Shown piece after piece: positions 1 through 26,163 of a stretch of DNA of 26,163 nt. Each line of letters starts with the position of its first letter. Position 1 is the stretch's first letter. Source of the stretch: a virus (lineage: Duplodnaviria > Heunggongvirae > Uroviricota > Caudoviricetes); the IMG/VR virus record IMGVR_UViG_2541047960_000003; one strand, given 5' to 3'. Made by a program: the position numbers and the translations under genes. The notes under the pieces are model-generated. The model had not been told where the DNA came from. It searched no databases and was given only the letters and a program-made list of their open reading frames with translations.

Positions 1-452
1 GCCTTCGGCGTGGCAGCCTCAGTTTCTGATTGACTGTCCGTGGCGCTGCTCAGTTGTACGGTGCCTTTTGCCGTCAGTGAAGCCGCAGGCACTCCCGTTA
101 TCTGACTCCACGGGTGAGTGTGGCTGGCAGGCGCCTTGCCGGCTGCCAGGTCGTATGCAGCCTTGACCGCTTTTGGTGTGGCGGCCAGCGTTTCAGAGGT
201 GCTGTTGGTGGCACTGCTCAGTTGGGTGAACCCCTTAGCTGTCAGTGTCGCGTCCGGGTGGTTACGGGAACGTACGTGTTCAGCCAGTGACTGTGCGGCT
301 TCCTCCGTTTTCTTCTTCAGCCATTTCGTCCTGTTTGCCAGTTGCCGGGGGGCTCGATTTGATATCCCGTCTGCACCACCCAGAACCGGATCTGATGTCT
401 CCAGTTGATAGATATTTTCTTCCCACTTTTCTGTTTCATTCAGGTTTCCCAT
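1..452 (-). CDS. tail fiber protein, N-terminal part (P2 gpH-like); partial, runs off the window start
   Basis: Manual minus-strand translation from ATG at 450-452 gives MGNLNETEKWEENIYQLETSDPVLGGADGISNRAPRQL... followed by two copies of a fiber motif (TAKGFTQLSSATNSTSETLAATPKAVKAAYDLAA ... TAKGTVQLSSATDSQSETEAATPKA). Frame appeared open to position 1 in my read. Sits directly downstream of the I-like gene in P2 order V-W-J-I-H. Confidence 0.6.
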   Translation of the reverse strand, partial: MGNLNETEKWEENIYQLETSDPVLGGADGISNRAPRQLANRTKWLKKKTEEAAQSLAEHVRSRNHPDATLTAKGFTQLSSATNSTSETLAATPKAVKAAYDLAAGKAPASHTHPWSQITGVPAASLTAKGTVQLSSATDSQSETEAATPK

Positions 453-454
453 AA

Positions 455-1033
455 TCAACTGCTCCCGTGGTTATAACTGCCATCATGGATGGCAGTATTG
501 TTATAGCGAATGGCCACAGACTGATACTCCAGGCTGGCCAGATGGCAGCGGGCCGGTGCAAATGCAGCCAGCGTCTGACGCAGCATCGCGGCCTGATCGT
601 TAGTAATGGGCTGTTTCAGAATAACGCGATAAACTGCCCAGGCGGCTGCATCTCCATGAACAAACAGTCCGTTATAGCTGCGATTGCCGTCGTAACTGAG
701 ACGACCTGTGCCTTCAATCAGATCCACTTCACCAAAGCCAAAACGGCGGATAACTTCCCGGATTGACCACGGCGTCCCTTTATACCGGTGCAGTTCGATG
801 GCTGCTTTTATAAGCATGCGGCGAACATCGTCCGATTCCGCCAGCTCCCAGCCATCGCCAGACAGTGAGAACTGCTCGCCCAGCCATGGCAGCGCGGAAC
901 TGTCGACGATATCGACGAGAAAGACCATCAGTACGCTCAGGTCGATGTTATCCAGCCGTCCTGCCAGTCTTCCCAGCGTCCTGAGACTGATATCACCCTC
1001 AAGCGGTGGCGGGAGTTGTAATGGCTCAGTCAT
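455..1033 (-). CDS. tail/baseplate protein, P2 gpI-like
   Basis: 192-aa ORF; start overlaps the J-like gene end; position between baseplate J and tail fiber matches P2 synteny. Confidence 0.55.
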   Translation of the reverse strand: MTEPLQLPPPLEGDISLRTLGRLAGRLDNIDLSVLMVFLVDIVDSSALPWLGEQFSLSGDGWELAESDDVRRMLIKAAIELHRYKGTPWSIREVIRRFGFGEVDLIEGTGRLSYDGNRSYNGLFVHGDAAAWAVYRVILKQPITNDQAAMLRQTLAAFAPARCHLASLEYQSVAIRYNNTAIHDGSYNHGSS

Positions 1034-2129
1034 CAGACACTCCAGTCATGTTAAGAGTGATTGCCGTACAGTTTGCCCATTCGTTTTCTGCCACCACCCG
1101 CAGTGCCGGTGTCACCAGTTCAACCTGGTACACCCCGGAAACGGACAATGCACTGATAATCTGGCTGGGGACAATATCGCGCCCCAGCGTGGCGGCACGT
1201 GATGCCACCCAGTTCTGTATGGCGCTGTTAGCGGCATCTTTTACAGACCTGGCATCCTGATCACGATAGATCGTAATCCTGGCTTCAATGGTGTAATCCA
1301 CCTTCACTGGTGTTTTAGCCCGCACTGTATCAGTGAGTGGCCTGACTTTCTCATCAGAGCAGAAACTCTCTACCAGCGTGAGAACACCGCCGTCCGGCAG
1401 ACCGGTACTGAGCAGCGGATACAGATCTACGGTCCCGGGAACCGGGGAAAGCACAGCAACATCGACAATGTTGGGATGGGCCTGCATGGCATGAAAGCGG
1501 TATGCGCCACGGCTTCCGGCATTGGTGAATGACTCCGGGGCCAGCCTGATACGCTCCCGGAGCCTGTCATCGTCTTCCTGTTCTGAACCGCCGGAACTGG
1601 CCGTCAGATTGCTCACCAGCAGGTCGACGTTATCAATCTCATCGAGTAACTGACTGACCTGCGCAGGTTGCCAGCCGTTACCAGCGGTACCGGGTTCGGT
1701 ACAGGTGGACGTGACATTGACCAGCAGCAATCCGGCCTTCAGTACCACATCTGTATCGGTGGCAAAAATAACGCTGTCGGAAGCGCTGACGCGGGTGCCT
1801 GCCGGGATCAGCACATCAATGGCCAGCGCCTCATCTACGGAGAACTGGAGCGTGGTGGTGGCAGGCTGCGCGGCAAGACGGTATACACCAACCAGTTCAC
1901 CGAGGTAATCAATCATCGGCTCACGGGCAAAGGCGACCAGATTCTGCTTTGCTGCCTCCTGTACCGCAACCCTGACCAGCATTTCGCGATAGGCCCACAG
2001 ATCAATCAGCAGACGTTCTGCCTGTGCCGGGTACAGCGTTTTGCCGGTATCCGCTTCATACTTCGCAATCATTTCTGCCGTGATTTTGTCGGCATCGCGT
2101 TCAATAAAATCGGGTTCTGTCAGCGCCAT
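1026..2129 (-). CDS. baseplate protein J-like
   Basis: 367-aa ORF following the W-like gene with overlapping boundaries; size and position typical of the baseplate J family. Confidence 0.7.
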   Translation of the reverse strand: MALTEPDFIERDADKITAEMIAKYEADTGKTLYPAQAERLLIDLWAYREMLVRVAVQEAAKQNLVAFAREPMIDYLGELVGVYRLAAQPATTTLQFSVDEALAIDVLIPAGTRVSASDSVIFATDTDVVLKAGLLLVNVTSTCTEPGTAGNGWQPAQVSQLLDEIDNVDLLVSNLTASSGGSEQEDDDRLRERIRLAPESFTNAGSRGAYRFHAMQAHPNIVDVAVLSPVPGTVDLYPLLSTGLPDGGVLTLVESFCSDEKVRPLTDTVRAKTPVKVDYTIEARITIYRDQDARSVKDAANSAIQNWVASRAATLGRDIVPSQIISALSVSGVYQVELVTPALRVVAENEWANCTAITLNMTGVSDD

Positions 2130-2467
2130 AGCAGCTCCTGAGTCCGGGTCTGTCCGTCTGAGCCTTTCCAGCTCACCCGGAGCGTAAGATGTTCGCCGTC
2201 GACGGCGGGTTTAACTGACATAAGCTGGCAGCGGGGCTCCCAGCGCCGGATGGCATCGACGGATTCGCGCACCACATGCGGAATGGCCCGGTCTACAGGC
2301 CAGTCGATATAAAGATGCAGATTGCTGCCGAACTCCGGGCGATGCGGGTCGCTGCCGCGGGGAGTCCGCAGGATAATTTGAATCGCCTGCCGGATATCAT
2401 CCAGCCCCCGGACAATTTCGCCGGGAGCCTGCAGGGCTGGTTGCCAGAATACTGAGGTTGTTTTCAT
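2120..2467 (-). CDS. baseplate protein W (GPW/gp25-like)
   Basis: 115-aa ORF between the V-like and J-like genes; size and position match P2 gpW. Confidence 0.65.
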   Translation of the reverse strand: MKTTSVFWQPALQAPGEIVRGLDDIRQAIQIILRTPRGSDPHRPEFGSNLHLYIDWPVDRAIPHVVRESVDAIRRWEPRCQLMSVKPAVDGEHLTLRVSWKGSDGQTRTQELLWR

Positions 2468-2502
2468 GGGGGCAGTATTGCCCCCGTGCGGGAACGCTGA
2501 TA

Positions 2503-2949
2503 TTAAAGGCGTTTAAAAAGCTCAGTGGGAGTGGTGGCTGGAGTTTTCGCCATCAGACAACATTTCAATACCACATCAGCACCACACTCAATGACAATAT
2601 GCTCAATGCCGCCCCGGATGATCAGAGTGTGCGTCTTCCGGTTGTAGCTGTACTCTGCACCATCAGCAAACCGGGTTCCCCGGATATTTTTGTCACTGAA
2701 CGGTGGTTTATCGACGTCTGAATACACCGCGCCCAGAATAACACCATCCTCGCCGTTGGCATCGAGCAGCACCTCAACCTGCTCCCCCACGTCAGGGAGC
2801 CAGTAATCTTTGTTATCCTGGGTATTGCGCTGCAGCACGTTAAGCCAGTTTGTGCGCAGGTTATCGCATTCAGGCAGACGAACGCGGGCCTGAACCCTGT
2901 CGGCATCAACGGCACTGACCGTACCGACCTGACGAGTGACACCAGTCAT
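2503..2949 (-). CDS. baseplate spike/assembly protein V-like
   Basis: 148-aa ORF immediately after the D-like gene (ATGA-type overlap at 2946-2949); P2 order D-V-W. Confidence 0.55.
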   Translation of the reverse strand: MTGVTRQVGTVSAVDADRVQARVRLPECDNLRTNWLNVLQRNTQDNKDYWLPDVGEQVEVLLDANGEDGVILGAVYSDVDKPPFSDKNIRGTRFADGAEYSYNRKTHTLIIRGGIEHIVIECGADVVLKCCLMAKTPATTPTELFKRL

Positions 2950-4100
2950 TTTTTCTTCTCCTTAATCACCGTCGATGTACTGCCATCCGGGTGATAAACC
3001 GTGAGTTTCTGAGTTTTTTGTTTTTTCCCTCTTGTGACTGGCCCCCGTGCCACTTCCAGCTCTGTGGTGTAGCCGCTGTTACGGTCAAACGCATGGCGGG
3101 CAGTGGTTATGAGCCATGGCCCGGATAACTGCCCAAAACCCACCAGTTCAATTTTGTTGCCTGCTGTCAGTTGAGGTGTTCCCGTCAGCGTCAGGGAGCC
3201 GTTCTGCTGGTATTCGTTATGTCTGGCCAGTGCTGAATCCGCTTTAATCCGGGCACTGTCCGGGTCGTTGACGCGGCTGTTAACTTTAAGTGAGTCAGCG
3301 CTGGTAACCTTACCACCTTTGAGCTTTTTGTCGCTTTCACGGGTACCACCATCAGCTTCGTAGACGATCAGTTTTTTACTGCTGCTTTTCTGGTGTTTTA
3401 CCTTTGCAGATTTATAGACCCGGTTGATGGTGTCACGCAGGGAAAAGCGGGCCACATCCTGCAGTTTTAACTGCCTGACCGGCTCCTGACTGCGCAGTGT
3501 GGCCAGATGAGAAAAAATCAGCTGGTCACTGACCACTTTCACTGCATAACCATACTCGCTGGCCAGCCGGCGCAGAAAACCCACGTCGGTTTCAGCATAC
3601 TGGGTCACCCGGTCGATTCTGATGGACTCAATGCTGCCCACCAGTTTCAGCCGGTGCTTTCTGGCAATCCGCCCCGCAACAGCTGCCAGCGTGGTGTTCT
3701 CAAAACCACGACTGGTTTTAGTCCGCAGGGCACTGTTAACCGAGGTGGCCACCCCACGGATAGAAACAACGGAAGCGGGCGAACTCACTTCGATCTCGTC
3801 TATAGAGAACGTACCGCAGGACAGCAGCTTCTCGCCCTGATAGCCCATTTTCAGCGTCAGCGTGTCACCCTTGCCCGGATACCATTTATCCAGCCAGCGG
3901 CCATCGGTGTCGTCCAGCTCCACCTCAATGGTATCGGACTCATTTTTGATGTTATCGCTCCAGGTCACACGGGTGACATAAGGCGCGATATCAGAGGTGA
4001 TGTTTTTCTGCAGATACCACAGAGTGAACACCGGTGTCAGCACATCGCTGACGCCGGTTAACGCTGATGTGACTTGCGCAGTGCTGTTTATCTCAGCCAT
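2946..4100 (-). CDS. tail protein D-like (P2 late control D family)
   Basis: 384-aa ORF with Lys-rich C-terminus, downstream of X- and U-like genes; P2 order T-U-X-D. Confidence 0.7.
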   Translation of the reverse strand: MAEINSTAQVTSALTGVSDVLTPVFTLWYLQKNITSDIAPYVTRVTWSDNIKNESDTIEVELDDTDGRWLDKWYPGKGDTLTLKMGYQGEKLLSCGTFSIDEIEVSSPASVVSIRGVATSVNSALRTKTSRGFENTTLAAVAGRIARKHRLKLVGSIESIRIDRVTQYAETDVGFLRRLASEYGYAVKVVSDQLIFSHLATLRSQEPVRQLKLQDVARFSLRDTINRVYKSAKVKHQKSSSKKLIVYEADGGTRESDKKLKGGKVTSADSLKVNSRVNDPDSARIKADSALARHNEYQQNGSLTLTGTPQLTAGNKIELVGFGQLSGPWLITTARHAFDRNSGYTTELEVARGPVTRGKKQKTQKLTVYHPDGSTSTVIKEKKK

Positions 4101-4303
4101 GGGGCAATATCCTCTTCTGTACGGGCTTCTTCAGCCTCAATCACCGGGATCAGTAACAACAGCCCGGAGGGCAGCACCGGCGTGATGGTCACGTGCGGAT
4201 TGGCGGCAATAATCCGGGGATAGCCCAGCGGGTCACCGTAGTACTGCCATGCCAGCGAATCCCAGCGCTCTCCGTCACGGGTAACATGTTCAAGAAACAT
4301 CAC
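4088..4303 (-). CDS. tail protein X-like (small LysM-like tail protein)
   Basis: 71-aa ORF with W..YYG...ANP motif typical of P2 gpX-like proteins; overlaps both neighbours. Confidence 0.55.
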   Translation of the reverse strand: MMFLEHVTRDGERWDSLAWQYYGDPLGYPRIIAANPHVTITPVLPSGLLLLIPVIEAEEARTEEDIAPWLR

Positions 4304-5184
4304 ACACTCCTCGTCAGTATTCTGGCGGCCATTGCACTTAATCCCGGAGACATGCGGTTGAATGCTGTGCCGGCGGCGTTAAGCTGCCCGGAAACGGTAT
4401 CCAGAGCACCTGCAATATTTCTTTTGTCCACACCACTCAGCGCAGACTGTGCCTGCTGTACATACGTGGCTGCTTCGCTGGCTGTTCTGGCCAGACTGAT
4501 GGCATCGGGCATGGATTCAGAGAGTGCGTTAAACGCCGGAACACTTTTCCCCAGAGCCCCGGAGATATTACCCAGTCCGCTCATCAGCCCCGGCACACGG
4601 GTCAGTGCGACAACGGGGTTATCCTTCATTTTCTGTGTCACCCGAACGGCGCTGATAGTGGTCTGGAGTACAGACTGCGCCTGTTTCGCATAGTTGACGC
4701 CGTTGCGGATGAACTGCGCCACCCCTGAAGGTGAAGGAATGGCACCGGAGACCGCCCCGACACCCGGGAGCTTCGTGCGTATTGCCGGTGGTTGCAGAGG
4801 ATTTTTCGGGTCACCGGTGTATTCCCGGAGAGACACGGTGGCACTGACAGCCAGCACGTTGCCGGTACTGTCAGTCTGCTCGCTGGTTGCAGTCACATCG
4901 GTAATCACGAACCAGCCGCGATAGTCACCGTTGCCGAAGACCAGCGCCAGTGCCTGATGGGCTTTCATGGCTGTTCGCAGTCTCGCCAGCTCCACATCGG
5001 GTACACAATAATGCTGATGGAAAACCAGAGTTATCTGGATTTCGTCCAGCCTGTCGCCGACGAACTGCAGGCCAGGCTTACCCCCGATGCGGGCATGCTC
5101 CGCATAATCGACGCCGAACGTGGCCTCGAAGCCGTCCCAGTAGGTAATCAGCTCAAACTCAATATCACCCAGTACGGCAAACAT
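4300..5184 (-). CDS. tail protein U-like, with long Ser/Ala-rich C-terminal extension
   Basis: 294-aa ORF directly after the tape measure gene (1-nt overlap at 5184); assigned by synteny and N-terminal domain feel. Confidence 0.5.
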   Translation of the reverse strand: MFAVLGDIEFELITYWDGFEATFGVDYAEHARIGGKPGLQFVGDRLDEIQITLVFHQHYCVPDVELARLRTAMKAHQALALVFGNGDYRGWFVITDVTATSEQTDSTGNVLAVSATVSLREYTGDPKNPLQPPAIRTKLPGVGAVSGAIPSPSGVAQFIRNGVNYAKQAQSVLQTTISAVRVTQKMKDNPVVALTRVPGLMSGLGNISGALGKSVPAFNALSESMPDAISLARTASEAATYVQQAQSALSGVDKRNIAGALDTVSGQLNAAGTAFNRMSPGLSAMAARILTRSV

Positions 5185-8135: not shown

Positions 8136-8210
8136 AGTGGTTAACCTCCGGGGAAGGTGAAAAGACGTGAGGGGATAACGCAGAACAGCCGCTACTGGCG
8201 GCTGTCTGTA

Positions 8211-8628: not shown

Positions 8629-8704
8629 GATTGTGCTCCTGTGTAAGTTCAGGGCAGTATGTCGGGAGAAGCGCGTGACGGATATTAAAGGAGATTAAGA
8701 AGAA

Positions 8705-8718
8705 GGGGCCGGAGCCCC
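8705..8718 (-). terminator. candidate attenuator/intrinsic terminator hairpin between tail tube and chaperone genes
   Basis: GGGGC-CGGA-GCCCC inverted repeat at 8705-8718; on the minus-strand transcript it is followed by UUCUUCUUAAUCUCCUUU. Confidence 0.3.
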
Positions 8719-9009
8719 TGTGATGTCAGCAAGTGCGAAACCCCTTGCAGTTACGCAGGAAAGCGATGAGAAGCGTCTTTCCCTCAGATTTGTCGGTGCC
8801 GGAGAACCAGTGGTCGGGAGGCTCCTATGCTTCAATCAAATCCGCCAGTTTGCGGGCCTTTGAACGTGTGCAGTCAATCGGGTCATTGGTTTTACGGGTA
8901 TTAAAAAGGGTTTCCACCCCCGGAATATCAAGGAGGGTAAACCACGTACCATTTGACATGCCCAGTGCCGCACATCGTCCTCCTTTATCCGTCAGTTCAA
9001 CACTCACCG

Positions 9010-12109: not shown

Positions 12110-12110
12110 G

Positions 12111-12449: not shown

Positions 12450-12458
12450 AACGCCTCC

Positions 12459-14710: not shown

Positions 14711-14756
14711 CCTCATTCTCTGGCAATGATAAATCACCCGCCTGAAGAGAGAAAAC

Positions 14757-15215: not shown

Positions 15216-15217
15216 TG

Positions 15218-19111: not shown

Positions 19112-19203
19112 GTGGCAATCCCCAGAATCTCGCGACGAAGCGCCTGTACTGCGTCGCTTGACAGTCCCCCCTTACGGGCAATTTTCTCGGCGTTGCTGGC
19201 TGC

Positions 19204-19653
19204 CTACTGCGCTCTGGCCCGTACTTCAGACTGGAACTTTTTGAGGTTGACGGACGCGCGGGACAGCGTAGCCACATTCTTCGCCACCTTCGACAGCAGG
19301 GCCACGCGTTCTTTAGGATCGACTTCGCCTTCTTCCGCCTCCTGCAACTGGACAATACTCTCGAACAGCTCGGTCTGAATAAGGGCTATCACAGCCTCCG
19401 AACGCGCATCCTGATCGTCTGCTGCGCCTTCGGTCAGCATGCGGGCCGCTTCTGTTGCCGCACGGATAGCACCATAGCGGCGCTCAATCTTCTGTCCATA
19501 GCGATGGATAGCGGATTTGCTGATGACGTACCCCCGCTCACGCAGCAGGGACTCCAGCTCGTTATACCCGCTGAAGCCGGATTCAGTCAGCGCCCGTTCA
19601 AGCCAGCGGCGCACGTCTTCCGGCAGCTTTTCTATTGTGCTGCGTCTGGCCAT
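19204..19653 (-). CDS. Mu gp27-like protein (putative small terminase / DNA-binding)
   Basis: 149-aa ORF upstream of the large terminase with an N-terminal HTH-like segment (SGYNELESLLRERGYVISKSAIHRYG). Confidence 0.5.
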   Translation of the reverse strand: MARRSTIEKLPEDVRRWLERALTESGFSGYNELESLLRERGYVISKSAIHRYGQKIERRYGAIRAATEAARMLTEGAADDQDARSEAVIALIQTELFESIVQLQEAEEGEVDPKERVALLSKVAKNVATLSRASVNLKKFQSEVRARAQ

Positions 19654-19964
19654 TATTCACTCCAGTACTTTTCCGGGCGGGCAATACCCGGACCACATTC
19701 CACGGTGTATTCCACCAGGTCTACGCCGAGGCGGGTCAGGTCAGCAAACCAGTCGCCAGAAGGTTTTTTCTCCAGATCAACCATTTTACGGTCAGCCAGA
19801 TAATCCAGTTCGCGGCGCAGTTCCAGCGGTGTGGTGTCCGGGTAGATGGCACGGGACACATCCAGCAGCAGCGTCTCGCTGGCGGTGTAAGGGCGGGTCT
19901 TGTTCAGGGCAACCAGCAGACTCCAGCGCAGGGATTCGCGGCGTACCCGGGTAATATCGACCAT
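19653..19964 (-). CDS. hypothetical protein
   Basis: 103-aa ORF tightly packed between neighbours, codon usage consistent with operon. Confidence 0.4.
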   Translation of the reverse strand: MVDITRVRRESLRWSLLVALNKTRPYTASETLLLDVSRAIYPDTTPLELRRELDYLADRKMVDLEKKPSGDWFADLTRLGVDLVEYTVECGPGIARPEKYWSE

Positions 19965-20290
19965 TATTGACCTCCGGTATTGCGGTACTGCTGTACCACT
20001 TCCAGTTTGTTATAAAGCGCGTCCAGTTTGGCCTCAATGACTGTCTGGCCACGGATATAATCCTCTCGACGGACATAATTCAGCGGTAAATCCGCTTTAA
20101 ATCGCATAAATTCTTTTTCCAGCTCGCCCCAGTTGGAGGCGGATTGTTGCAGGGCCTGTTCAAGGGAGGCGAATCGTGCCGCCTGGCGTTCTTCTGTTTT
20201 ACTGAACAACCATTTGGCGAGCCCTCCCACAAACCCCATGAAGGTGAGCAGAAAACTCACCACCGTCCAGAATTCAACCTGCAGTGTCAT
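19964..20290 (-). CDS. membrane-anchored coiled-coil protein
   Basis: 108-aa ORF, N-terminal TM (FWTVVSFLLTFMGFVGGLAKWLF) then charged helical region; ATGA-type overlap with Rz stop. Confidence 0.45.
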   Translation of the reverse strand: MTLQVEFWTVVSFLLTFMGFVGGLAKWLFSKTEERQAARFASLEQALQQSASNWGELEKEFMRFKADLPLNYVRREDYIRGQTVIEAKLDALYNKLEVVQQYRNTGGQ

Positions 20291-20937
20291 TTCTGTAATC
20301 CTTCCCGTTCATCCAGTAACGCGTTTATCTGGTTCCGCCAGCGACGACATTGTCCTGCGTTGTCGATGATGTTGGCGAGAACGTCACGCTGGGAGACACC
20401 CGAATCGCGTAACCGGGTGTCAGTGGTTTCAGGTTGCCCGGTCGCTGTGCCAGAGCGGGTGCCAGCGGCGGCAACTGAGTCTGAATGACCGGTGTCGACG
20501 GATGCGTTGTCATATCCGAGTGCGGTGTTGTACTGGCGCACGAAACCGCGAGTAAACACGCACTCAATGGGATGGCTCTTACCTTTTTCATCAATCCAGC
20601 GCTGTGTGACATCGTTAATTTGCCCCTGTAGTTGTTTATTCCGGCTCTCCAGTTGAGCAATCTGCTCAAGATAACCGGCTTCAGCCCGCTGCCCGGCGGC
20701 CACCTGCTCCTGATACCGTCTGGCCCAGGCCCGCAGCGCAGCATTCTCAAGCGTTGCCTGCTCCGTTTTGTACGCGTCAAATGCTGACTGCAACTGACTG
20801 AGCGCGGTATCACCGTCACGCTTTGCAGAGTCATGACCACTTCTGTATCCCATGGCATACAGGCCGACCAGAAAGGCATTGATAAGAATGGCCAGCAGAA
20901 TGCCGCGCCACGGCAGCTTTTTAATCAGATGCCACAC
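20287..20937 (-). CDS. Rz-like i-spanin
   Basis: N-terminal TM (GILLAILINAFLVGLYAMGY) followed by long coiled-coil region; proposed GTG start at 20935-20937 preceded by GGGGAGG + 8 nt; alternative ATG at 21039 would overlap the endolysin by 119 nt. Confidence 0.55.
   Translation of the reverse strand: MWHLIKKLPWRGILLAILINAFLVGLYAMGYRSGHDSAKRDGDTALSQLQSAFDAYKTEQATLENAALRAWARRYQEQVAAGQRAEAGYLEQIAQLESRNKQLQGQINDVTQRWIDEKGKSHPIECVFTRGFVRQYNTALGYDNASVDTGHSDSVAAAGTRSGTATGQPETTDTRLRDSGVSQRDVLANIIDNAGQCRRWRNQINALLDEREGLQK
20325..20591 (-). CDS. Rz1-like o-spanin lipoprotein, embedded in +1 frame within Rz
   Basis: ATG at 20589-20591; MKKVRAIPLSACLLAVSCAS has signal peptide and lipobox-like Cys; Pro-rich mature part (PSTPVIQTQLPPLAPALAQRPGNLKPLTPG). 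Confidence 0.5.
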   Translation of the reverse strand: MKKVRAIPLSACLLAVSCASTTPHSDMTTHPSTPVIQTQLPPLAPALAQRPGNLKPLTPGYAIRVSPSVTFSPTSSTTQDNVVAGGTR

Positions 20938-21661
20938 AACTGCTGCCTCCCCATGTGAGATATCGCGGTGCCAGTTCGCGCAGGATGCGCTGCGGATAAT
21001 GGCGGTTCTCCCGCCAGCTGGCCGCATTGCGTCCGGCATTCACCGTGGCGACATGTCCGAACCAGCGGGTGCTGTCCAGACCTTTCTGTGATGCAAGCCG
21101 CCTGTCCCGTTGTACCCAGCCCAGACCACCGTTATAGCCCGACAGTGTCATGGCCATACGCTCGCAGTCACTGGCGGCGCTGACACGCTGCCACAGCCAG
21201 CGGTCATAGCTGACCAGCGCCCGGATAGCCCATGCCGGATTAAACGGCTCACGACTGCTCAGCATCGGTATCAACTGGCTTATCCAGTCGGCAGTGGCAG
21301 GCATGAACTGCGCCAGTCCCTGAGCGCCAGCCGGCGAGATCGCATCAGGTCGCCAGCCGCTTTCCTGATGCAGTTGCGCGGCGAAATCGGCCACCGGCGC
21401 AGACAGTCCCCATTCAAGCCGGGCATTACGGATCACATCATCGCGATACTGCAGCGCAGCCTGCGGAGGTTGTGCTGCGCATGCCTGGCTGAAAAAGCCG
21501 CCACACCAGAGCAACATTGCGACAAAGAATACCCATGCCATATGAACCAGAAAGGTCCCGGCGCGGACTGACAGGCGTTCGGTTCTGATGAAGACCCGAA
21601 AGGCTTCGAAAGCCAGTTTCAGGGACATGCATACAATCCAGGTGATCTGCGGCCAGTTCAT
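20921..21661 (-). CDS. endolysin, lytic transglycosylase (SLT domain) with N-terminal hydrophobic segment
   Basis: 246-aa ORF with E-S-x-W...AQGLAQFMPATA catalytic-region pattern; N-terminal MAWVFFVAMLLWCGGFFSQACAAQ looks like a signal or SAR segment; start ATG 3 nt after the holin-like stop. Confidence 0.75.
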   Translation of the reverse strand: MNWPQITWIVCMSLKLAFEAFRVFIRTERLSVRAGTFLVHMAWVFFVAMLLWCGGFFSQACAAQPPQAALQYRDDVIRNARLEWGLSAPVADFAAQLHQESGWRPDAISPAGAQGLAQFMPATADWISQLIPMLSSREPFNPAWAIRALVSYDRWLWQRVSAASDCERMAMTLSGYNGGLGWVQRDRRLASQKGLDSTRWFGHVATVNAGRNAASWRENRHYPQRILRELAPRYLTWGGSSCVASD

Positions 21662-21663: not shown

Positions 21664-22014
21664 TTAAAGCCCCATCGCAACAGCCAGGCAGACCGCTGCA
21701 ACAATCAGTGCACGGCGGATTAACGCAGCAGAAAACACCAGGTGAAGGCCGGTCTGTACCGGGAAACGCCCTTCAGCCATCAGCCTGTCGTCATGTTTCA
21801 GGTACTGACCGGGACGGGCTTTGGGGAAGAGCGAACGGTCAAGCCAGTAACCCAGCACTGCTGCCAGCGTGATGAGTGCCAGCTTGTAGATCACAACAGG
21901 CAGCTGCTGTGGTGAGACCAGAGCGATGGTGCCCAGCAACAGCACTGAGGTCAGCAGCCAGCCGCTGAGGCGAGGTTTTTTAACAGGGGGAATGAATTTT
22001 TTCAGGTTTTTCAT
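21664..22014 (-). CDS. putative holin (small multi-TM membrane protein)
   Basis: ATG at 22012-22014 with GAGGAGA SD; about three hydrophobic segments; first gene of the late operon, immediately upstream of endolysin. Confidence 0.45.
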   Translation of the reverse strand: MKNLKKFIPPVKKPRLSGWLLTSVLLLGTIALVSPQQLPVVIYKLALITLAAVLGYWLDRSLFPKARPGQYLKHDDRLMAEGRFPVQTGLHLVFSAALIRRALIVAAVCLAVAMGL

Positions 22015-22144
22015 GTGTGTCTCCTCGTTTGGTGGAGACAGCATCACAAATACAGGGCGCAAAGGATTTTAAAGCGCGTTAAGAGAGCCGGGGATACGGG
22101 ATGTGCAGGATAAACGATGAATTATTCACAGAGGAGAATACGAT
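22015..22144. promoter_or_regulatory. divergent promoter region (late lysis/structural operon leftward; P-loop gene rightward)
   Basis: 130-bp non-coding gap between the first late gene start (22014) and the plus-strand gene start (22145); no specific promoter boxes confirmed. Confidence 0.3.
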
Positions 22145-22621
22145 ATGACGCACACACTGAATCCGGTCATCACTGTCACTGTGTCCGGTCCTGTGGGCAG
22201 CGGTAAAAGTTACGTACTGGCGCGGATAGAAGAGATGGTGAAACAGGAACTCGGAAACAGCGTCATTGTCGATGCTGCTGACGTGGAGAATGAGCGCCGT
22301 ATGAATGGCGAAGATCTGACGACCTGGCAGAAGCCACGGGGTGGCACAGTGATCAGGCTAGAGGAATACACGGGACAGGGCCTGTTGTCATACGGCGAGG
22401 AGCGTATCTGTCGGACGAATGAGCTGCTGGATGTTATATGCCCCACGGGCCGGCAACCCTGGATACTGCCCGATGCACTGCATGCCACCATTGCGGCACT
22501 GATGACAGTTTACGATCAGGAGCTGCTCATGAAGGAGTTACGTAAACTCACCGGTCAGCCAACAGAATGTTGTTCGTCTCCGAAGTACGGCAAACAGGAA
22601 AACGCCCCGGATAATCCTTAA
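22145..22621 (+). CDS. small P-loop (Walker A) protein, possible small kinase-fold protein
   Basis: 158-aa ORF; SD GAGGAG 8 nt before ATG; VITVTVSGPVGSGKSYV Walker A at residues 15-22, then VIVDAAD acidic motif about 20 residues later. Confidence 0.5.
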   Translation: MTHTLNPVITVTVSGPVGSGKSYVLARIEEMVKQELGNSVIVDAADVENERRMNGEDLTTWQKPRGGTVIRLEEYTGQGLLSYGEERICRTNELLDVICPTGRQPWILPDALHATIAALMTVYDQELLMKELRKLTGQPTECCSSPKYGKQENAPDNP

Positions 22622-22640
22622 GATACCTCCTGAACAGAAA

Positions 22641-22656
22641 CAGCCCTGAAGGGCTG
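22641..22656 (-). terminator. candidate intrinsic terminator ending the repressor-operon transcript
   Basis: CAGCCC-TGAA-GGGCTG hairpin 2 nt after the stop of the 196-aa gene; on minus-strand RNA it is followed by UUUCUGUU; on plus-strand RNA it is followed by A-rich sequence, so it is unidirectional. Confidence 0.4.
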
Positions 22657-22658
22657 CA

Positions 22659-23249
22659 CTAAAAAAAGAAGTGTATTATTGCCCAAACAGCTATAACGAT
22701 GATTCCCAGCCCAAGAGCCGATTCTAACTTATCTTTGGCAGTCATTTTTACTGTTGTAGCGGGCGCAGGTAAGTCTTGCTGCTGTGGATTTTCTGTTAGT
22801 TGTTTACGAGAAGAAACATCGCCCCTATTAGTTTGCTTCATGTTGATTACAGATGCGTTATGGGCATTATCAGCAGCAATTGACTGAAGTTTTACAAAAG
22901 TTTTTGAATCTGTTTTAGCCAGAAGTAACCTATTTCCCGTAAACATTGCCTTAAAAGTGATAGTTTTTTTCGTCTTGTCCGCCGCACCAAGCAAACCTCC
23001 AATGACCAACCCTGCACCACCAAAGATTAATCCACCAAGCAAACCTGCGCCTGCCGCCTTACCTATACGGCTTTCCTCTTCACTATCCGCAAGTTCAATC
23101 GATAAAAGCTCTTCTTTCAGATTTAATACAATATTTTCAGGAAAGCCTTGTTTTGGTTTTTTGGCAAACACGATGGTACCGAACCCCATGCTTGCCCACC
23201 CTTTAGGAAAACTTCCTGCGATAACCTGAATCCCTGCCATGTTCATCAC
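22659..23249 (-). CDS. glycine-zipper membrane protein of unknown function
   Basis: ~193-196-aa ORF (GTG/ATG start cluster at 23238-23249 after AAAGGTG); GxxxG-rich segment AAGAGLLGGLIFGGAGLVIGGLLGAA and C-terminal TM LGLGIIVIAVWAIIHFFF; AT-rich codon usage. Confidence 0.5.
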   Translation of the reverse strand: MMNMAGIQVIAGSFPKGWASMGFGTIVFAKKPKQGFPENIVLNLKEELLSIELADSEEESRIGKAAGAGLLGGLIFGGAGLVIGGLLGAADKTKKTITFKAMFTGNRLLLAKTDSKTFVKLQSIAADNAHNASVINMKQTNRGDVSSRKQLTENPQQQDLPAPATTVKMTAKDKLESALGLGIIVIAVWAIIHFFF

Positions 23250-23330
23250 CTTTTACATTAAAATTTCAGAACGCAGCATGATGCCGCCTTTGTCTTTTTT
23301 CTGATCCCATGGTAATTCAGCTGTTATTTT

Positions 23331-24317
23331 CTATTTAAGAATAAAACGGTATTTACTGTCAGGAGTGCTTTGCTGATCAAGTAGCAGTGAACGACATGGA
23401 GCAGTCAAAACCCGAGCATAACTACCATCAGGGCTTATGTTAATGTAACAAACCTTGCCCTTAACACTATAATTTTCGGGGACGGATGCCTTTGCTGATA
23501 CAGTAAATTTAAGGGTATGCCAGCCCGTTTTTTGCTTGTAGCTTGAAACCGAATGGAAATCATCTGAGTACTTATTTAACCCTGGAAACATGCTGCGCAG
23601 TGCGGGGATGGAATCTTCTATTATTTTATCGTTGGTTTTAATGTTAAAAACGCTGGTTTCAGTAGAAGCTACTGCTTTGGCATTTCCCCATTTACCAGCG
23701 AACACAATCATTCCCACGAAAAATATTGCTACAAGAACTAACACTCCCCCCAACACTACTACATGAGGCTTCCGGCTTCTGGTTGGTACAGTTGCGACTG
23801 ATTTTGCACCGCTTTCCGATGGAGGTGATAGAGTTTTACTCTCATCACGAATATTCAGCAGATCATCAAAATAACCAAACACAGCCTGCAACTGCTCTTT
23901 GTCTAGGCCTTTAAGATGGGTTGTACCGAAATGCTTCAGACAGTATCTGTCACGGTCAAGACGATACCCAGGGTCAGTAAGCGCCATTATTTTGCTGACC
24001 AGAAGATTACAGTCCTTCATATTCTGGATCTGTTGTGCATATCTCTGAAGGATCTCAACCGCACCATGATAATCAGCCGCAGTCATTTCATTAACTGTTT
24101 TGGTATTAAGTTTCGTGTGGATCGTCATCCATAGCTCGCGCTTACTTTCCCCCAGATCAACCAATTCATCCATCAATCTGTGTAAATCGCGTTTTTGCAG
24201 CAACGAAATTGGTTGCTGGGCCGAAGGAAGTATGTCAGCAGAATAGTTATGAATGGTAACATCACCGCTGACAACGTTACCCACATCCCCGTTAACTGTT
24301 TGCTTCTCTTTACTCAT
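23331..24317 (-). CDS. single-pass membrane protein of unknown function, translationally coupled to the repressor
   Basis: 328-aa ORF; ATG at 24315-24317 overlaps repressor stop (ATGA); ~190-aa N-terminal domain, one TM (HVVVLGGVLVLVAIFFVGMIVFAG), ~115-aa C-terminal domain. Confidence 0.55.
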   Translation of the reverse strand: MSKEKQTVNGDVGNVVSGDVTIHNYSADILPSAQQPISLLQKRDLHRLMDELVDLGESKRELWMTIHTKLNTKTVNEMTAADYHGAVEILQRYAQQIQNMKDCNLLVSKIMALTDPGYRLDRDRYCLKHFGTTHLKGLDKEQLQAVFGYFDDLLNIRDESKTLSPPSESGAKSVATVPTRSRKPHVVVLGGVLVLVAIFFVGMIVFAGKWGNAKAVASTETSVFNIKTNDKIIEDSIPALRSMFPGLNKYSDDFHSVSSYKQKTGWHTLKFTVSAKASVPENYSVKGKVCYINISPDGSYARVLTAPCRSLLLDQQSTPDSKYRFILK

Positions 24318-24775
24318 CTTCTCTTGGTATTTTTGTTCATTATTCCACCTGTTCCTATGGTTACGTTACCTTTGATAACATTCCCCAGAACATCTCCATG
24401 AATAACCTGTTCCGCCCGTTCTCTGGAGGAGCCAGTAGTCAAGGCCGACAAAACTGAACCTTTGACCTGTAATGGTGCCTGCCGGTAGTGCTGCAGTAAC
24501 TCCATTTCATCACGTGATAAAGTTATACCTGATGACTCCCCGGTAAGAATGAACTGTACATTGGCCCCAATTCTTGCAAAGGCTGCAAGTAACTCACCTC
24601 CGGGAACAGCAACCCCTCGTTCATATTTCCCCCACATTTCTCTTGAAACGCCACAAAGGGCTGCTACTTCAGCCTGCTTGAGTGATAACCGCGAACGCTC
24701 AGCTTTGAACCGCGACGCGCAAAGAGAATCAAAATTCACATAAACCTCATTGGCAATGAGAACAATAGTTCTCAT
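24314..24775 (-). CDS. XRE-family HTH transcriptional repressor (putative immunity repressor)
   Basis: 153-aa ORF with classic HTH_XRE segment (LSLKQAEVAALCGVSREMWGKYERG); divergent from the early operon across a 50-bp gap. Confidence 0.65.
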   Translation of the reverse strand: MRTIVLIANEVYVNFDSLCASRFKAERSRLSLKQAEVAALCGVSREMWGKYERGVAVPGGELLAAFARIGANVQFILTGESSGITLSRDEMELLQHYRQAPLQVKGSVLSALTTGSSRERAEQVIHGDVLGNVIKGNVTIGTGGIMNKNTKRR

Positions 24776-24825
24776 AATCTATCACATATAAAACAAACAT
24801 CATTGCATCAACAAAGGAGACAACA
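24776..24825. promoter_or_regulatory. divergent promoter/operator region between repressor and early operon
   Basis: 50-bp AT-rich gap containing TCACATATA, ATTGCA and the SD AAAGGAGA for the Ner-like gene. Confidence 0.4.
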
Positions 24826-25014
24826 ATGACTTCCGAACAAGTTAAAAATCTCTTCCGTCAGCGTGGTATCACGTTTACCCGCTGGGCCGAAGAACACGGC
24901 TACAGCCGCAATGAGGTCTATCGTGTTCTCAATGGACAGACCAAAGCTCGTTACGGCAAAGCCCATGAAATTGCCGTAAAACTGGGATTAAAACCCACGT
25001 CAAATGCGGCATAA
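24826..25014 (+). CDS. Ner-like small DNA-binding regulator
   Basis: 62-aa ORF with SD AAAGGAGA; HTH-like TRWAEEHGYSRNEVYRVLNG and C-terminal KAHEIAVKLGLKP resembling the Ner/Nlp pattern. Confidence 0.6.
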   Translation: MTSEQVKNLFRQRGITFTRWAEEHGYSRNEVYRVLNGQTKARYGKAHEIAVKLGLKPTSNAA

Positions 25015-25020
25015 ATTTTC

Positions 25021-25051
25021 CACATATGCAACAGGTTATCACATATTGCAA
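25021..25051. promoter_or_regulatory. direct repeats CACATATGCAA / CACATATTGCAA, candidate operator sites
   Basis: Copies at 25021-25031 and 25040-25051 (19-bp spacing) upstream of the winged-helix gene; related CACATAT at 24783-24789 in the divergent promoter gap. Confidence 0.35.
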
Positions 25052-25066
25052 AAATGGAAATGTGAC

Positions 25067-25375
25067 ATGAGTAAAGTAAATATTTCCAGTTCTGGGACCC
25101 GCATCCTACGTGTACTCAAAGCTCTACGCGGTCATGCTCTGAACGGTGTTTCTAACGGTGAACTGGCATCAGCCCTGGGGGAGTCCCCGGCGAATATCAA
25201 TCGAGCACTTAATACCCTTATTGAAGAGGGACTGGCCATGAAATTAGAGAACGGACGTTTCGCACCGGGAATCCAGTTACTACAGATCGCCATGGCTCAC
25301 AGTCACGAGATGGCGCGTGCACAGGATCGTATTAACGAAATCAACCAACGAGTTATTTCAGGTAGTCGTTTGTAA
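25067..25375 (+). CDS. winged-helix (IclR/MarR-like HTH) transcriptional regulator
   Basis: ILRVLKAL...GVSNGELASALGESPANINRALNTLIEEGLA HTH pattern; start set at ATG 25067 (MSKVN...), since the track start at 25004 overlaps the Ner-like gene and the repeats; start uncertain. Confidence 0.5.
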   Translation: MSKVNISSSGTRILRVLKALRGHALNGVSNGELASALGESPANINRALNTLIEEGLAMKLENGRFAPGIQLLQIAMAHSHEMARAQDRINEINQRVISGSRL

Positions 25376-25385
25376 GGAGTAATCA

Positions 25386-26075
25386 ATGGGACGCACCAAA
25401 TCACCCGTTAACACTGAACTGAATGTTGAGGTTCCGCTGTCAGATAACATCAATGTCAATTTGAACGCTATGACACAGCATCGCATGGAAATTATGCAGC
25501 AGTTTGGTGATGGACTGCCTTATGAACGTGATCGCATTGTTCACGAAGCACGTTTTTATATGGCGCAGAGTGCTGAATCTATGCTGGAAGCGGGTAAGCG
25601 GCTGATCATCTTAAAAGAAAATGAGCCACACGGTGATTTTACAAACATTTTAGAAAATGAACTCGGACTTGCACCACAAGTTGCTCGCCGCATGATGCAA
25701 GCCAGTATGAAGTTTTTGGGAGAAGGTGATGAGCCAACAAAACGCTCAACGTTGAGCGTTTTGGGGAAAGCCAAACTGTACGACCTGATGGTTCTGGATA
25801 ATGAAGAACTTGATGAATTGGCCGACGGCGGCACAGTTGCCGGCCTGACGCTTGACGACGTTGATCGCATGTCAGTACGTGAATTGCGTCAGGCCCTGCG
25901 CGAAGCGCGCGAAACCAACGCAGCACAACAGCGCGTACTCGCTGACAAAAATGAAAAAATAGACTCACTCTCCACCAGACTGGAGAAGAAATCCCGTATT
26001 CAGCCGCCTGAGCCTGATGAAGAGGTTAAGAAGCTGCGGGCGGAAGTGACAGCATTAGCGGTTGAGGCGGAATGA
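25386..26075 (+). CDS. conserved early-region protein of transposable prophages (DUF3102-like by recall)
   Basis: 229-aa ORF with strong SD TAAGGAGTAATCA before ATG; charged helical C-terminus; stop overlaps a following ATG (ATGA at 26072-26075). Confidence 0.5.
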   Translation: MGRTKSPVNTELNVEVPLSDNINVNLNAMTQHRMEIMQQFGDGLPYERDRIVHEARFYMAQSAESMLEAGKRLIILKENEPHGDFTNILENELGLAPQVARRMMQASMKFLGEGDEPTKRSTLSVLGKAKLYDLMVLDNEELDELADGGTVAGLTLDDVDRMSVRELRQALREARETNAAQQRVLADKNEKIDSLSTRLEKKSRIQPPEPDEEVKKLRAEVTALAVEAE

Positions 26076-26163
26076 ACCGCCCCGGGTTTCCTGGAGAGTG
26101 TTTTATCTGTGAACTCAGGCTGCCAGATCATCGTTTCCGATGGAAGCATAATAAGCTTTTTCT

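Follow-up and report, generated by a model that had tools for sequence, protein, structure and literature searches.

The window, i.e. the whole 26,163-nucleotide stretch of DNA that was analysed, spans the late genes of a BcepMu-like transposable myophage and reaches into the beginning of its early region (Table 1). A single leftward block running from 22062 to 1 encodes lysis, head, packaging and tail functions, and early genes are read from the plus strand from 24826 onwards, the two being divided by a repressor/early-promoter interface at ~24.8 kb. Both this opposition of late and early genes and the lack of an integrase in the window were as anticipated by the original prediction.

Table 1. 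Features of the window (positions in nucleotides; percentages are identities)
Feature	Position	Strand	Evidence
Tail fibre gene (P2 H-like), N-terminal 150 codons	1-452	-	Open frame from ATG at 452
Baseplate protein, P2 gpI family	455-1033	-	Pfam Tail_P2_I 1e-24; BcepMu gp51 63%, P2 I 26%
Baseplate wedge, P2 gpJ family	1026-2129	-	Pfam Baseplate_J 9e-69; P2 J 33%, BcepMu gp50 55%
Baseplate wedge, P2 gpW/gp25 family	2120-2467	-	Pfam GPW_gp25
Baseplate spike gene V, truncated	2503-2949	-	blastn breakpoint vs CE10 and PhiKM; translations
Baseplate hub, P2 gpD family	2946-4100	-	Pfam Phage_GPD; P2 D 33%
Tail protein X (LysM-like)	4088-4300	-	Pfam Phage_tail_X 5e-17
Tail protein, P2 gpU family	4300-5184	-	Pfam Phage_P2_GpU 7e-39
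Tape measure protein, 983 aa	5184-8135	-	Pfam PhageMin_Tail; BcepMu gp44 31%
Tail assembly chaperone E (8628-8293) and frameshift extension E' (frame ends 8211)	8211-8628	-	Pfam Phage_TAC_7
Small lineage-specific ORF between tube and E	8726-9007	-	PhiKM and CE10 comparison
Tail tube, P2 FII family	9010-9531	-	Pfam Phage_tube 3e-53; P2 FII 29%
Tail sheath, P2 FI family	9531-10958	-	Pfam Phage_sheath_1, Phage_sheath_1C; P2 FI 33%, BcepMu gp39 76%
BcepMu gp38 homologue	10948-11202	-	BcepMu gp38 49%; PHROG 895
Gp37-family protein, probable tail terminator	11199-11663	-	Pfam Gp37 4e-62; weak Phage_tail_terminator match
Mu gp36-family head-tail connector	11663-12109	-	Pfam Phage_Mu_Gp36 1e-37
Head decoration (cement) protein gp35, DUF2190	12111-12449	-	Pfam Phage_cement_2 2e-13
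Major capsid protein	12459-13412	-	PHROG 1005 9e-130; Pfam Phage_cap_E weak, 23.6 bits; PDB 3BJQ 6e-36
Head maturation protease/scaffold candidate, 371 aa	13427-14542	-	PHROG 976 3e-163; BcepMu gp32 50%
Mu G/P2 S family virion morphogenesis protein	14757-15215	-	Pfam Phage_tail_S; Mu gp31 29%
Mu F-family minor head protein	15218-16039	-	Pfam Phage_Mu_F; Mu gp30 47%
Mu-type portal protein	16020-17516	-	Pfam Portal_Mu 2e-89
Mu-type large terminase	17516-19111	-	Mu gp28 49% over 471 aa, E = 4e-140
Mu gp27-family small terminase-like gene	19108-19653	-	Pfam Phage_Mu_Gp27
Two small conserved genes, BcepMu gp26 and gp25 homologues	19653-20290	-	57% and 52%; PHROGs 436, 462
Rz-like i-spanin	20287-20937	-	PHROG 1403
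Embedded Rz1 lipoprotein (o-spanin), +1 frame	20591-20325	-	Lipobox LLAVSC, proline-rich
SLT-domain transglycosylase (endolysin)	20921-21661	-	Pfam SLT; BcepMu gp22 61%
Holin	21664-22014	-	Pfam Holin_2-3 1e-41
Candidate activator-dependent late promoter, -10 element TTAAAATC, upstream of holin gene	22065-22072	-	
Sister late-promoter candidates, 5' of protease gene, E and W	14598-14605; 8681-8688; 2499-2506		
P-loop protein remnant, 158 aa of 242-aa family	22145-22621	+	PHROG 3787, profile positions 1-157 of 242
Membrane proteins c31 (22659-23240) and c32 (23331-24317), downstream of repressor	22659-24317	-	PHROGs 12025, 10002
HTH (Cro/CI-type) immunity repressor	24314-24775	-	Pfam HTH_31, HTH_3; BcepMu gp17 39%
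Candidate early promoter, TTGGCA, 17-nt spacer, CATAAT	24750-24778	+	Consensus scan
First early gene, small HTH protein, BcepMu gp16 family	24826-25014	+	NCBIfam TIGR04111, 94 bits vs cutoff 34
Winged-HTH early protein, BcepMu gp12 homologue	25067-25375	+	Pfam HTH_IclR; BcepMu gp12 34%
DUF3102 early gene, BcepMu gp10 homologue, truncated	25386-26072	+	Pfam DUF3102; intact CE10 gene compared
IS3-family terminal 91 bp: right inverted repeat and transposase 3' end	26073-26163	-	100% identity to CE10 element

In the immunity region, the P-loop remnant is interrupted at 22609, where a module-swap boundary falls, as seen in the alignment with the PhiKM orthologue, and c31 and c32 form a low-GC (43-48%), variable immunity/cargo module found in 96 of 605 matching genomes. 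Neither protein gave a Pfam or PADLOC match; residues 19-147 of c32 show a sub-threshold match to Flk. The role of the putative early promoter is suggested by its consensus match and its position. The first early protein had been described as Ner-like; it belongs to the BcepMu_gp16 family, has no match to Mu Ner (tblastn) and is a positional analogue of Ner/Cro. As for late transcription, the candidate promoter motif, a pattern derived post hoc, occurs five times in the window against 0.78 expected, four of these matches falling between late genes and on the late strand, and similar motifs lie at four orthologous BcepMu gaps.

Within the tail block, the tape measure gene contains an internal tandem duplication of 261 bp at 5785-6319 (TRF: period 261, 2.0 copies, 92% matches). 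The E' extension lies in the +1/-2 frame (three-frame translations compared with Mu, P2 and BcepMu), with a G5 run at 8304-8300 as the candidate slip site; the chaperone extension of Mu gp41 is likewise in the -2/+1 frame beside a G5 run, whereas P2 E' uses the -1 frame. The tail fibre gene runs past the left edge of the window. Of the two small genes next to the lysis cassette, the BcepMu gp25 homologue encodes a membrane protein.

Mu-type packaging genes and a P2-type tail

The packaging and head-accessory genes TerL, F, portal and G are homologous to Mu gp28 (49% identity), gp30 (47%), gp29 (27%) and gp31 (29%), respectively, and have no P2 match (all tblastn); the Mu-type Pfam families present are Phage_Mu_Gp27, Portal_Mu, Phage_Mu_F and Phage_Mu_Gp36. 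Of the head genes proposed in Mu order, gp27, TerL, portal, F, G and gp36 are of Mu families, but the genes labelled 'I' (13427-14542) and 'T' (12459-13412) encode proteins with no detectable Mu similarity (tblastn), and these two assignments are positional only. The former, at the Mu I position, is the protease/scaffold candidate, for which PHROG 976 is the sole profile match, with none in Pfam, NCBIfam or PDB; the latter is the major capsid protein, which by sequence is not Mu T.

The tail proteins match P2 (tblastn: sheath 33%, tube 29%, D 33%, V 30%, W 39%, J 33%, I 26%, U 25% and the N-terminus of H 57% over 121 aa of gpH), and among them J alone has a Mu match, a weak one. The fibre also carries Pfam Phage_fiber_2 repeats, and the P2-type families Phage_tube, Phage_P2_GpU, Phage_tail_X, Phage_GPD, GPW_gp25, Baseplate_J, Tail_P2_I and Phage_TAC_7 extend the P2 homologues to X and the E chaperone family. 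At the DNA level, however, Mu aligns to 1.4% of the window and P2 to 0.4%.

These figures bear on two alternative identities. A genuine prophage of the Mu family (Muvirus; Mu, D108 and SfMu are examples) would likewise be a transposable temperate myophage with TG/CA ends, and besides the six head genes of Mu families, the Gam (62% identity), Gin-like invertase (76%), GemA and Mor of the wider element, outside the window, are Mu-related. This identity is nevertheless refuted, and we regard it as vanishingly improbable: so little Mu DNA aligns; the tail (J apart), capsid protein, protease, lysis genes, repressor and Ner of Mu are unrelated by sequence to their window counterparts; in place of MuA and MuB, the lineage has a transposase resembling that of Tn552 and an ATPase of the ExeA type; the late genes are inverted relative to the early ones, whereas the Mu layout is unidirectional; and the target duplication is 6 bp in the E. 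coli lineage, not 5 bp as in Mu. The early genes had also been predicted to be of Mu type, which does not stand, as none of the four in-window early proteins matches Mu and the lineage transposase is not MuA-like.

The second alternative, a P2-like (Peduoviridae) prophage or a recent recombinant of Mu and P2 phages resident in E. coli, would explain why nine tail proteins match P2 and why the E/T/U/D and V/W/J/I/H blocks retain their internal P2 order. We consider it just as far-fetched, since the amino-acid identities reach only 25-57% with 0.4% of the DNA aligning, and the window holds no homologues of the P2 capsid and terminase genes Q, P, O, N, M and L, no integrase, no P2 replication genes and no cos site. 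Nor did the phage collection yield any segment >90% identical in nucleotides to contemporary P2-like or Mu-like E. coli phages. The tail order given in the original prediction is that of BcepMu; P2's own order differs, V-W-J-I-H-G lying upstream of FI-FII-E-T-U-D with X inside the capsid operon, so that in the window the two P2 tail operons are fused in opposite order and X is shifted between U and D.

Because the Mu/P2 combination is already collinear in Burkholderia phage BcepMu (Bcepmuvirus bcepMu, AY539836), it is ancient and not a fresh chimera; on these comparisons, the hybrid character is an old, lineage-defining trait. Best homologues confined to a single lineage had been named as speaking against a mosaic, and formally this is what was found: BcepMu is the best match of every window protein, with collinear homologues for all 30-odd genes (31-76% amino-acid identity, tblastn). 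The two share early and late clusters that diverge from an interface holding the repressor and gp16, the holin-SLT-Rz/Rz1 lysis cassette, Mu-type gp27, TerL, portal, F and G, and the P2-type tail order FI-FII-E-T-U-X-D-V-W-J-I-H. BcepMu DNA aligns to only 33.6% of the window, at 67% identity. The genus criterion in ICTV guidance is 70%, and the DNA similarity between the window and BcepMu falls below it. The window further differs in the small ORF between tube and E and in its immunity/cargo module, and has no counterpart of the BcepMu acyltransferase gp53; the E. coli lineage has in addition Gam and a Gin invertase, both Mu-like, the latter accompanied by an invertible fibre segment, whereas BcepMu has no inversion system according to Lavigne et al (PMC2771037). 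BcepMu-like viruses have been described as having two divergent clusters, a Tn552-IS1604-type transposase, terminal CA, a TerL homologous to that of Mu and a tail related to P2 in sequence and order (PMC2771037; PMC2628397). The published organisation (PMC2771037) is that of the window and thus supports a BcepMu-like transposable prophage with Mu-type packaging and a P2-type tail, as had been proposed.

Near-identical copies and transposition

The closest relative is a prophage of E. coli CE10 (NC_017646, 1294.7-1332.1 kb), with 99.9% nucleotide identity over window positions 1-26073, and at least 80% of the window is found in 447 of 5,426 complete E. coli genomes. Escherichia phage PhiKM (PQ738613), whose GenBank taxonomy line reads Bcepmuvirus, is 99.3% identical over 1-19655. 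Both have the gene content and order of the window, but PhiKM has another immunity region and is only 82% identical over 24774-26073. The PhiKM record is a partial genome. Klebsiella phage KP12 is 86% identical to the window.

The ends, target duplication and transposase of this copy lie outside the window and were read in near-identical E. coli copies. As predicted, the element ends and the inversion system are external, a Gin-like invertase with 229-nt inverted repeats lying just left of the window. The near-identical copies occupy three insertion sites (lom of a lambdoid prophage, the yqcC-syd intergenic region and the inside of irp2) and have identical ends, TGATGCGCC...TCTAATCA, of the form TG...CA. 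Direct target duplications were present as expected, but these (ATGTGC, TAGAAT and CTCAGG) are 6 bp long in three of three genomes, not 5 bp. The transposase has an rve domain and 69% identity to BcepMu gp09, with no MuA match; the ATPase is of the ExeA type (AAA_22 domain), and a Mor-family activator was confirmed by Pfam. BcepMu likewise has a Tn552-like rve transposase, an ExeA-type ATPase and TG...CA ends, the E. coli counterparts having been read in CE10. The BcepMu-like transposable reading is supported by the three insertion sites, the TG...CA ends and the direct target duplications.

Homology, gene layout, insertion-site polymorphism and lesions are read directly; the regulatory and transposition steps that follow are drawn from analogy with Mu and BcepMu. 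In intact relatives, the Cro/CI-type repressor and the divergent early promoter would govern a rightward early operon encoding the gp16-family HTH, winged-HTH and DUF3102 proteins and, beyond the window, the Tn552-like DDE (rve) transposase, the ExeA-type AAA ATPase, Gam, GemA and, at the right end, the Mor-family activator. The phage would insert and replicate by transposition, with 5'-TG...CA-3' ends and a 6-bp target duplication, and Mor would next turn on the leftward late genes. These would supply the holin/SLT/Rz-Rz1 lysis cassette, Mu-type genes for headful packaging and head accessories (gp27, TerL, portal, F, G), capsid, protease and cement proteins of non-Mu type, Mu-type connectors gp36 and gp37, and a P2-type contractile tail from sheath to fibre, with the Gin-type invertible fibre segment just past the left window edge.

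Lesions of this copy

This copy carries three lesions. Gene V has lost 169 bp at position 2563, and the resulting frameshift costs the protein its C-terminal 70 residues; in the intact form, Phage_base_V and Phage_spike domains are present, the latter region falling in the lost part. The deletion junction is found in none of the 5,426 complete E. coli genomes, the undeleted gene in 579. In gp27, examined alongside the PhiKM and CE10 copies, codon 150 is the amber TAG in place of CAG (19206-19204), and the exact 61-mer around this site occurs in only 3 of 499 E. coli genomes; lacking just the last 31 of 181 residues, the truncated protein might still be working. Finally, where a probable transposase start had been placed at the window end, the sequence instead enters an IS3-family element, by 91 bp, which truncates the DUF3102 gene after codon 229 of 304. 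This end corresponds to the right terminus of an IS3-family element that CE10 carries at a different place (L001 6334-6244), and none of the 5,426 complete E. coli genomes has its junction with DUF3102. This sequence is the sole source of both the V deletion and the IS junction, and either may be an assembly artefact.

Could the copy still function, either as a prophage that can be induced or, once domesticated, as a tailocin or gene-transfer particle, its lesions being tolerated or sequencing artefacts? The majority of the ~30 late genes are undamaged, with 99-100% identity to other copies, the gp27 truncation is short, and W is intact here but has an internal stop in CE10 (comparison with CE10 and PhiKM). 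Against this, the V frameshift removes the spike region, the IS breaks the early operon upstream of the transposase and Mor, the gp27 amber is rare, and CE10, the closest relative, shows with its independent W stops and shared ambers a pattern of neutral decay. We therefore hold a functional copy to be very unlikely; judged from its sequence, this one is almost certainly a decaying, non-inducible remnant. Taken together, we are highly confident that a BcepMu-like transposable myophage of a sub-lineage near CE10 lies integrated here in an E. coli chromosome, in a decayed copy of which the window holds most (~70%). Prophages of this kind, with Mu-style DNA packaging, a P2-style tail and insertion by transposition, are well known; the locus, one more copy of such a prophage, damaged by deletion, nonsense mutation and IS insertion, is therefore ordinary.

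The CE10 prophage has neither the V deletion nor the IS insertion in its DUF3102 gene, and carries another IS3-family copy farther right in the early region. The small ORF at 8726-9007 has an amber at codon 61 in the window and the same stop in CE10, whereas in PhiKM this ORF, V and gp27 are all intact.

Architecture and relatives of the prophage

The window is occupied by a single long leftward gene block (ORF listing), a short low-GC region (43-48% GC against 53-60% elsewhere in the window) and rightward early genes, with the repressor on the minus strand. This layout, in which the early and the lysis/head/tail clusters diverge with lysogeny control genes at their interface, is the same as in the Burkholderia phage BcepMu. 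BcepMu-like viruses have been described as having two such divergent clusters with the lysogeny control genes between them (Lavigne et al. 2009, PMC2771037), a lysis set of holin, endolysin, Rz and Rz1, a TerL homologous to that of Mu, tail genes that resemble those of P2 in both sequence and order, a Tn552-IS1604-family transposase in place of MuA, and terminal CA dinucleotides (PMC2771037); TG...CA and rve features are likewise reported in the KS10 paper (PMC2628397). As far as it can be read from the sequence, the window, which includes an embedded Rz1 lipoprotein, agrees with this description on every point.

E. coli chromosomes match the entire window, strain CE10 at 99.9% identity; among the 5,426 complete E. 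coli genomes, 447 contain at least 80% of it and 664 show some match. In the phage collection, Escherichia phage PhiKM (Bcepmuvirus in its GenBank taxonomy line) is 99.3% identical over 1-19655 and Klebsiella phage KP12 is ~86% identical to the window.

We then compared the Mu, P2 and BcepMu genomes by tblastn with every window protein as query. The best match was always BcepMu, in strictly collinear order and at 31-76% identity, which, together with the published traits, bears out the proposed BcepMu-like resemblance. Mu was matched only by TerL (49% identity), F (47%), the portal (27%) and G (29%), plus J weakly, and P2 only by tail proteins: sheath (33%), tube (29%), D (33%), V (30%), W (39%), J (33%), I (26%), U (25%) and the fibre N-terminus (57%). 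The Pfam families are Phage_Mu_Gp27, Portal_Mu, Phage_Mu_F, Phage_Mu_Gp36 and Gp37 on the head side, and Phage_sheath_1, Phage_tube, Phage_TAC_7, Phage_P2_GpU, Phage_tail_X, Phage_GPD, GPW_gp25, Baseplate_J and Tail_P2_I on the tail side. The element thus carries a Mu-homologous TerL with head-accessory genes and a P2-type tail, as the original prediction held, with three caveats. First, neither of the genes read as Mu I and T has Mu similarity by tblastn; the capsid protein belongs to PHROG 1005, with a weak Phage_cap_E match and a match to PDB 3BJQ, the 371-aa protease/scaffold candidate is recognised only by PHROG 976 (a PDB sequence search gave no match), and the next gene after that of the capsid protein specifies a cement protein (DUF2190). 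Second, the order FI...D-V...H is not P2's own: in P2 the F operon comes after V-W-J-I-H-G, and X is found among the capsid genes. The order in the window is that of BcepMu, identical to gp39-gp52. Third, the early genes are not of Mu type: those in the window, namely a Cro/CI-type repressor, a BcepMu_gp16-family HTH protein (TIGR04111), a winged-HTH protein and a DUF3102 protein, have no Mu counterparts by tblastn.

Overall, the element is of an already known kind, correctly identified in the original prediction apart from several details, and this copy of it is defective. Its discovery value is small: BcepMu-like transposable phages of exactly such architecture were described in 2004-2009, hundreds of RefSeq genomes carry annotations of this E. 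coli prophage, and GenBank already has a 99%-identical phage record. The practical yield is housekeeping, i.e. a decaying copy, a right end that is an IS element and not the phage transposase, 6-bp duplications with TG/CA ends, and a mosaic that is an ancient trait of the lineage.

Coordinates of the features discussed (window positions unless another locus is named)
Feature	Position	Strand	Remark
Late gene block	22062-1	-	~22.06 kb
TTAAWATC site	2499-2506	-	upstream of W
Deletion in V	2563		
Tape measure tandem duplication	5785-6319		
E' extension	8211-8628 (with E)	-	
G5 run, candidate slip site	8304-8300		
TTAAWATC site	8681-8688	-	upstream of E
Small ORF with amber codon	8726-9007		
TTAAWATC site	14598-14605	-	upstream of protease
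Conserved 15-nt sequence in hairpin	14683-14697	-	BcepMu counterpart at L005 18740-18754
gp27	19108-19653	-	
Rz1	20591-20325		
TTAAWATC site	22065-22072	-	upstream of holin
Low-GC region	22.1-24.8 kb		
P-loop protein	22145-22621	+	
Immunity/cargo module	22609-24775		low-GC, swappable; HTH repressor, c32, c31
Repressor	24775-24314	-	
Early genes	from 24826	+	
DUF3102 gene	25386-26072	+	apparent ORF 25386-26075
IS3-family inverted-repeat end	26073-26163		
CE10 element	L001 9437-46807		inserted inside lom gene of degraded lambdoid prophage
Gin-like invertase and 229-nt inverted repeats, CE10	L001 9511-11869		just left of window
AH20I049 element			inserted between yqcC and syd
AVS0225 element			inserted inside irp2 of yersiniabactin locus

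Transposition, element ends and classification

The window is cut off by the IS and by its own end, and the transposition genes were read outside it, in the CE10 copy. There, a Tn552/IS1604-type DDE transposase (Pfam rve, 69% identity to BcepMu gp09, no MuA match) is accompanied by an ExeA/AAA_22-type ATPase 59% identical to BcepMu gp08. The CE10 copy also encodes Mu-like Gam (62% identity), GemA (36%), Mor (31%) and a Gin-like invertase (76%); the Gam of the E. coli lineage has no BcepMu match by tblastn. The annotation of the CE10 element includes no integrase.

Sister copies lie at three unrelated sites in three genomes (CE10, AH20I049 and AVS0225). Their ends, read in L001 and the sister-copy loci L006-L009, are identical (TGATGCGCC...TCTAATCA; 5'-TGATGCGCCGCGCGATAAATG...GTCATTTATCTCAAGTCTAATCA-3'), with repeated GATAAATG-type motifs at both, and each is flanked by a direct target duplication (ATGTGC, TAGAAT and CTCAGG). 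The duplications are 6 bp in all three genomes, not the 5 bp that had been expected and that Mu produces; a literature text search for BcepMu and target site duplication found nothing relevant. The TG...CA termini, the differing insertion sites and the short duplicated targets were observed in the copies of relatives, not in this one. The disruption of irp2 in AVS0225, a complete genome, shows that insertion of such phages can knock out virulence genes. The surmise that any host-range inversion system lies outside the window also held in CE10: besides the invertase, 229-nt inverted repeats, 93% complementary and 0.3-2.5 kb left of the window, flank alternative fibre C-termini and fibre-assembly genes. 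BcepMu itself has no such inversion system (PMC2771037).

In nucleotide alignments, Mu covers 1.4% of the window, P2 0.4% and BcepMu 33.6% (mean 67% identity). The element is therefore mosaic, as proposed, in a deep sense only, and not a recent mosaic as a whole. The Mu/P2 combination is older than the split of the Burkholderia and enterobacterial lineages, an ancient trait of the lineage; recent joints are limited to the immunity/cargo module (22.6-24.8 kb) and, beyond the window, to the Gin and Gam modules, which are Mu-like.

The ICTV guideline for a genus asks for 70% or more nucleotide identity with the type species across the genome. As the alignable third of the window reaches only 67% to BcepMu, the E. 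coli lineage would not be a Bcepmuvirus in the strict sense. We rejected Muvirus, given the absence of a MuA/MuB match, the 6-bp duplications and a divergent layout as opposed to a unidirectional early-to-late one; the structural genes do not place it there either, the capsid protein, protease, sheath and tube having no Mu match and the Pfam families being Phage_cap_E, Phage_tube and Phage_sheath_1. Peduoviridae was likewise rejected, with P2 matches confined to tail genes, no integrase annotated in the CE10 element and insertion by transposition. We consider it rather unlikely that the E. coli/Klebsiella lineage is an undescribed genus-level hybrid that also bears an immunity module with a new function. 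Such a hybrid may have a BcepMu chassis, equipped with a Tn552-type transposase and producing 6-bp duplications, onto which Mu-derived Gin/invertible-fibre and Gam modules were grafted, and may further include a Mu-style -2 frameshift in a P2-family E chaperone and a four-promoter late regulon with a conserved -10-only TTAAWATC element. Whatever its rank, the E. coli lineage is plainly a BcepMu-like phage.

Lesions of this copy

We defined the lesions by comparison with the CE10 and PhiKM copies. The baseplate spike gene V carries a 169-bp deletion that causes a frameshift and the loss of the last 70 residues; the deletion junction is present in 0 of the 5,426 complete E. coli genomes, and the undeleted gene in 579 (junction search, E <= 1e-15). 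The terminase-like gene gp27 has a CAG-to-TAG change at codon 150, common to CE10, the surrounding 61-mer being exact in only 3 of 499 genomes, and a small ORF contains an amber codon that CE10 has too. In view of these common amber codons, this copy probably sits in the lom gene as well.

The right end of the window had been taken for a probable transposase start. Its last 91 bp match, at 100% identity, the inverted-repeat end of an IS3-family element that CE10 carries elsewhere and that looks IS629/IS3411-like; the supposed start is thus an IS end. The insertion falls after codon 229 of the 304-codon DUF3102 gene (the BcepMu gp10 homologue), and its junction was absent from all complete E. 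coli genomes searched. The TGA of the apparent 229-codon ORF comes from the first bases of the inverted repeat (TGAACCGCCCCGGG...), hence the end of this ORF is an insertion artefact. In an uninterrupted copy, the phage transposase would start ~230 bp past the insertion point.

With V frameshifted by a deletion, gp27 interrupted by an amber codon and the early operon by an IS, the essential early, head and tail genes are not uninterrupted as in an intact, inducible prophage. CE10 carries its own independent stop in the baseplate wedge gene W, and these lesions taken together form the pattern expected of a vertically inherited, decaying prophage.

Immunity module and sequence signals

PhiKM similarity stops at 22609, inside the P-loop gene, and from 24774 onwards returns at no more than 82%. 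Cut by this recombination boundary, the P-loop protein retains 158 aa of a phage family 242 aa in length (PHROG 3787); the RefSeq name of its CE10 copy, 'ABC transporter ATPase', is not supported, all Pfam and NCBIfam matches being far below cutoffs. Of 605 matching E. coli genomes, only 96 carry the module (repressor, c32 and c31). Its HTH repressor is translationally coupled to c32, a 328-aa membrane protein, followed by c31, a 196-aa glycine-zipper membrane protein, and the C-terminal sequence of the repressor (HGDVLGNVIKGNVTIG) is similar to that at the N-terminus of c32 (NGDVGNVVSGDVTIHN). The N-terminal region of c32 is Flk-like at 46.6 bits, sub-threshold and far under the family cutoff. 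Neither cargo protein has a Pfam match, a PDB sequence search with c32 returned noise only, and PADLOC on the cargo and immunity proteins gave sub-threshold HTH noise only, with no known defence system. On the rather unlikely reading of a new function, c32 and c31, co-transcribed with the repressor, could provide superinfection exclusion or lysogenic conversion.

All four late intergenic gaps contain, on the late strand, a -10-like TTAAWATC element without a -35 hexamer. The pattern, chosen post hoc, has 5 matches in the window against 0.78 expected, and related motifs occur in the four orthologous BcepMu gaps upstream of gp21, gp32, gp41 and gp49 (GATTAAAAGACC twice, TTTTTTAATC and CTTTAATATCC). 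Bearing in mind the post hoc choice, these sites are plausible candidates for Mor-dependent late promoters. A longer composite motif, TTAAAATC-N-CTGYATTT, fitted only two late gaps and was replaced by the shorter element. A generic sigma-70 and terminator scan of 21.9-25.4 kb gave fewer matches than shuffled controls, the only usable ones being an early-promoter candidate and one terminator after c31, and Rfam (gathering threshold) and tRNA scans of the window found nothing. The gap between the G and protease genes, close to the middle of the genome, holds a hairpin that includes the 15-nt TTATAAAGGCTTTAC, identical in the window and BcepMu; Mu has its terminator and strong gyrase site at this position.

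The E' extension of the tail assembly chaperone is conserved in the +1/-2 frame, the same relative frame as in BcepMu. Its candidate slip site is a G5 run adjoining the extension (GCC GGG GGA GAT TGA), which resembles the verified -2 frameshift site of Mu (CGG GGG CGA), unlike P2, where the -1 frame is entered at a TTTTTTG site. A 261-bp (87-aa) stretch of the tape measure gene is tandemly duplicated at 92% identity; CE10 has this duplication too, and the PhiKM sequencing gap falls exactly there.
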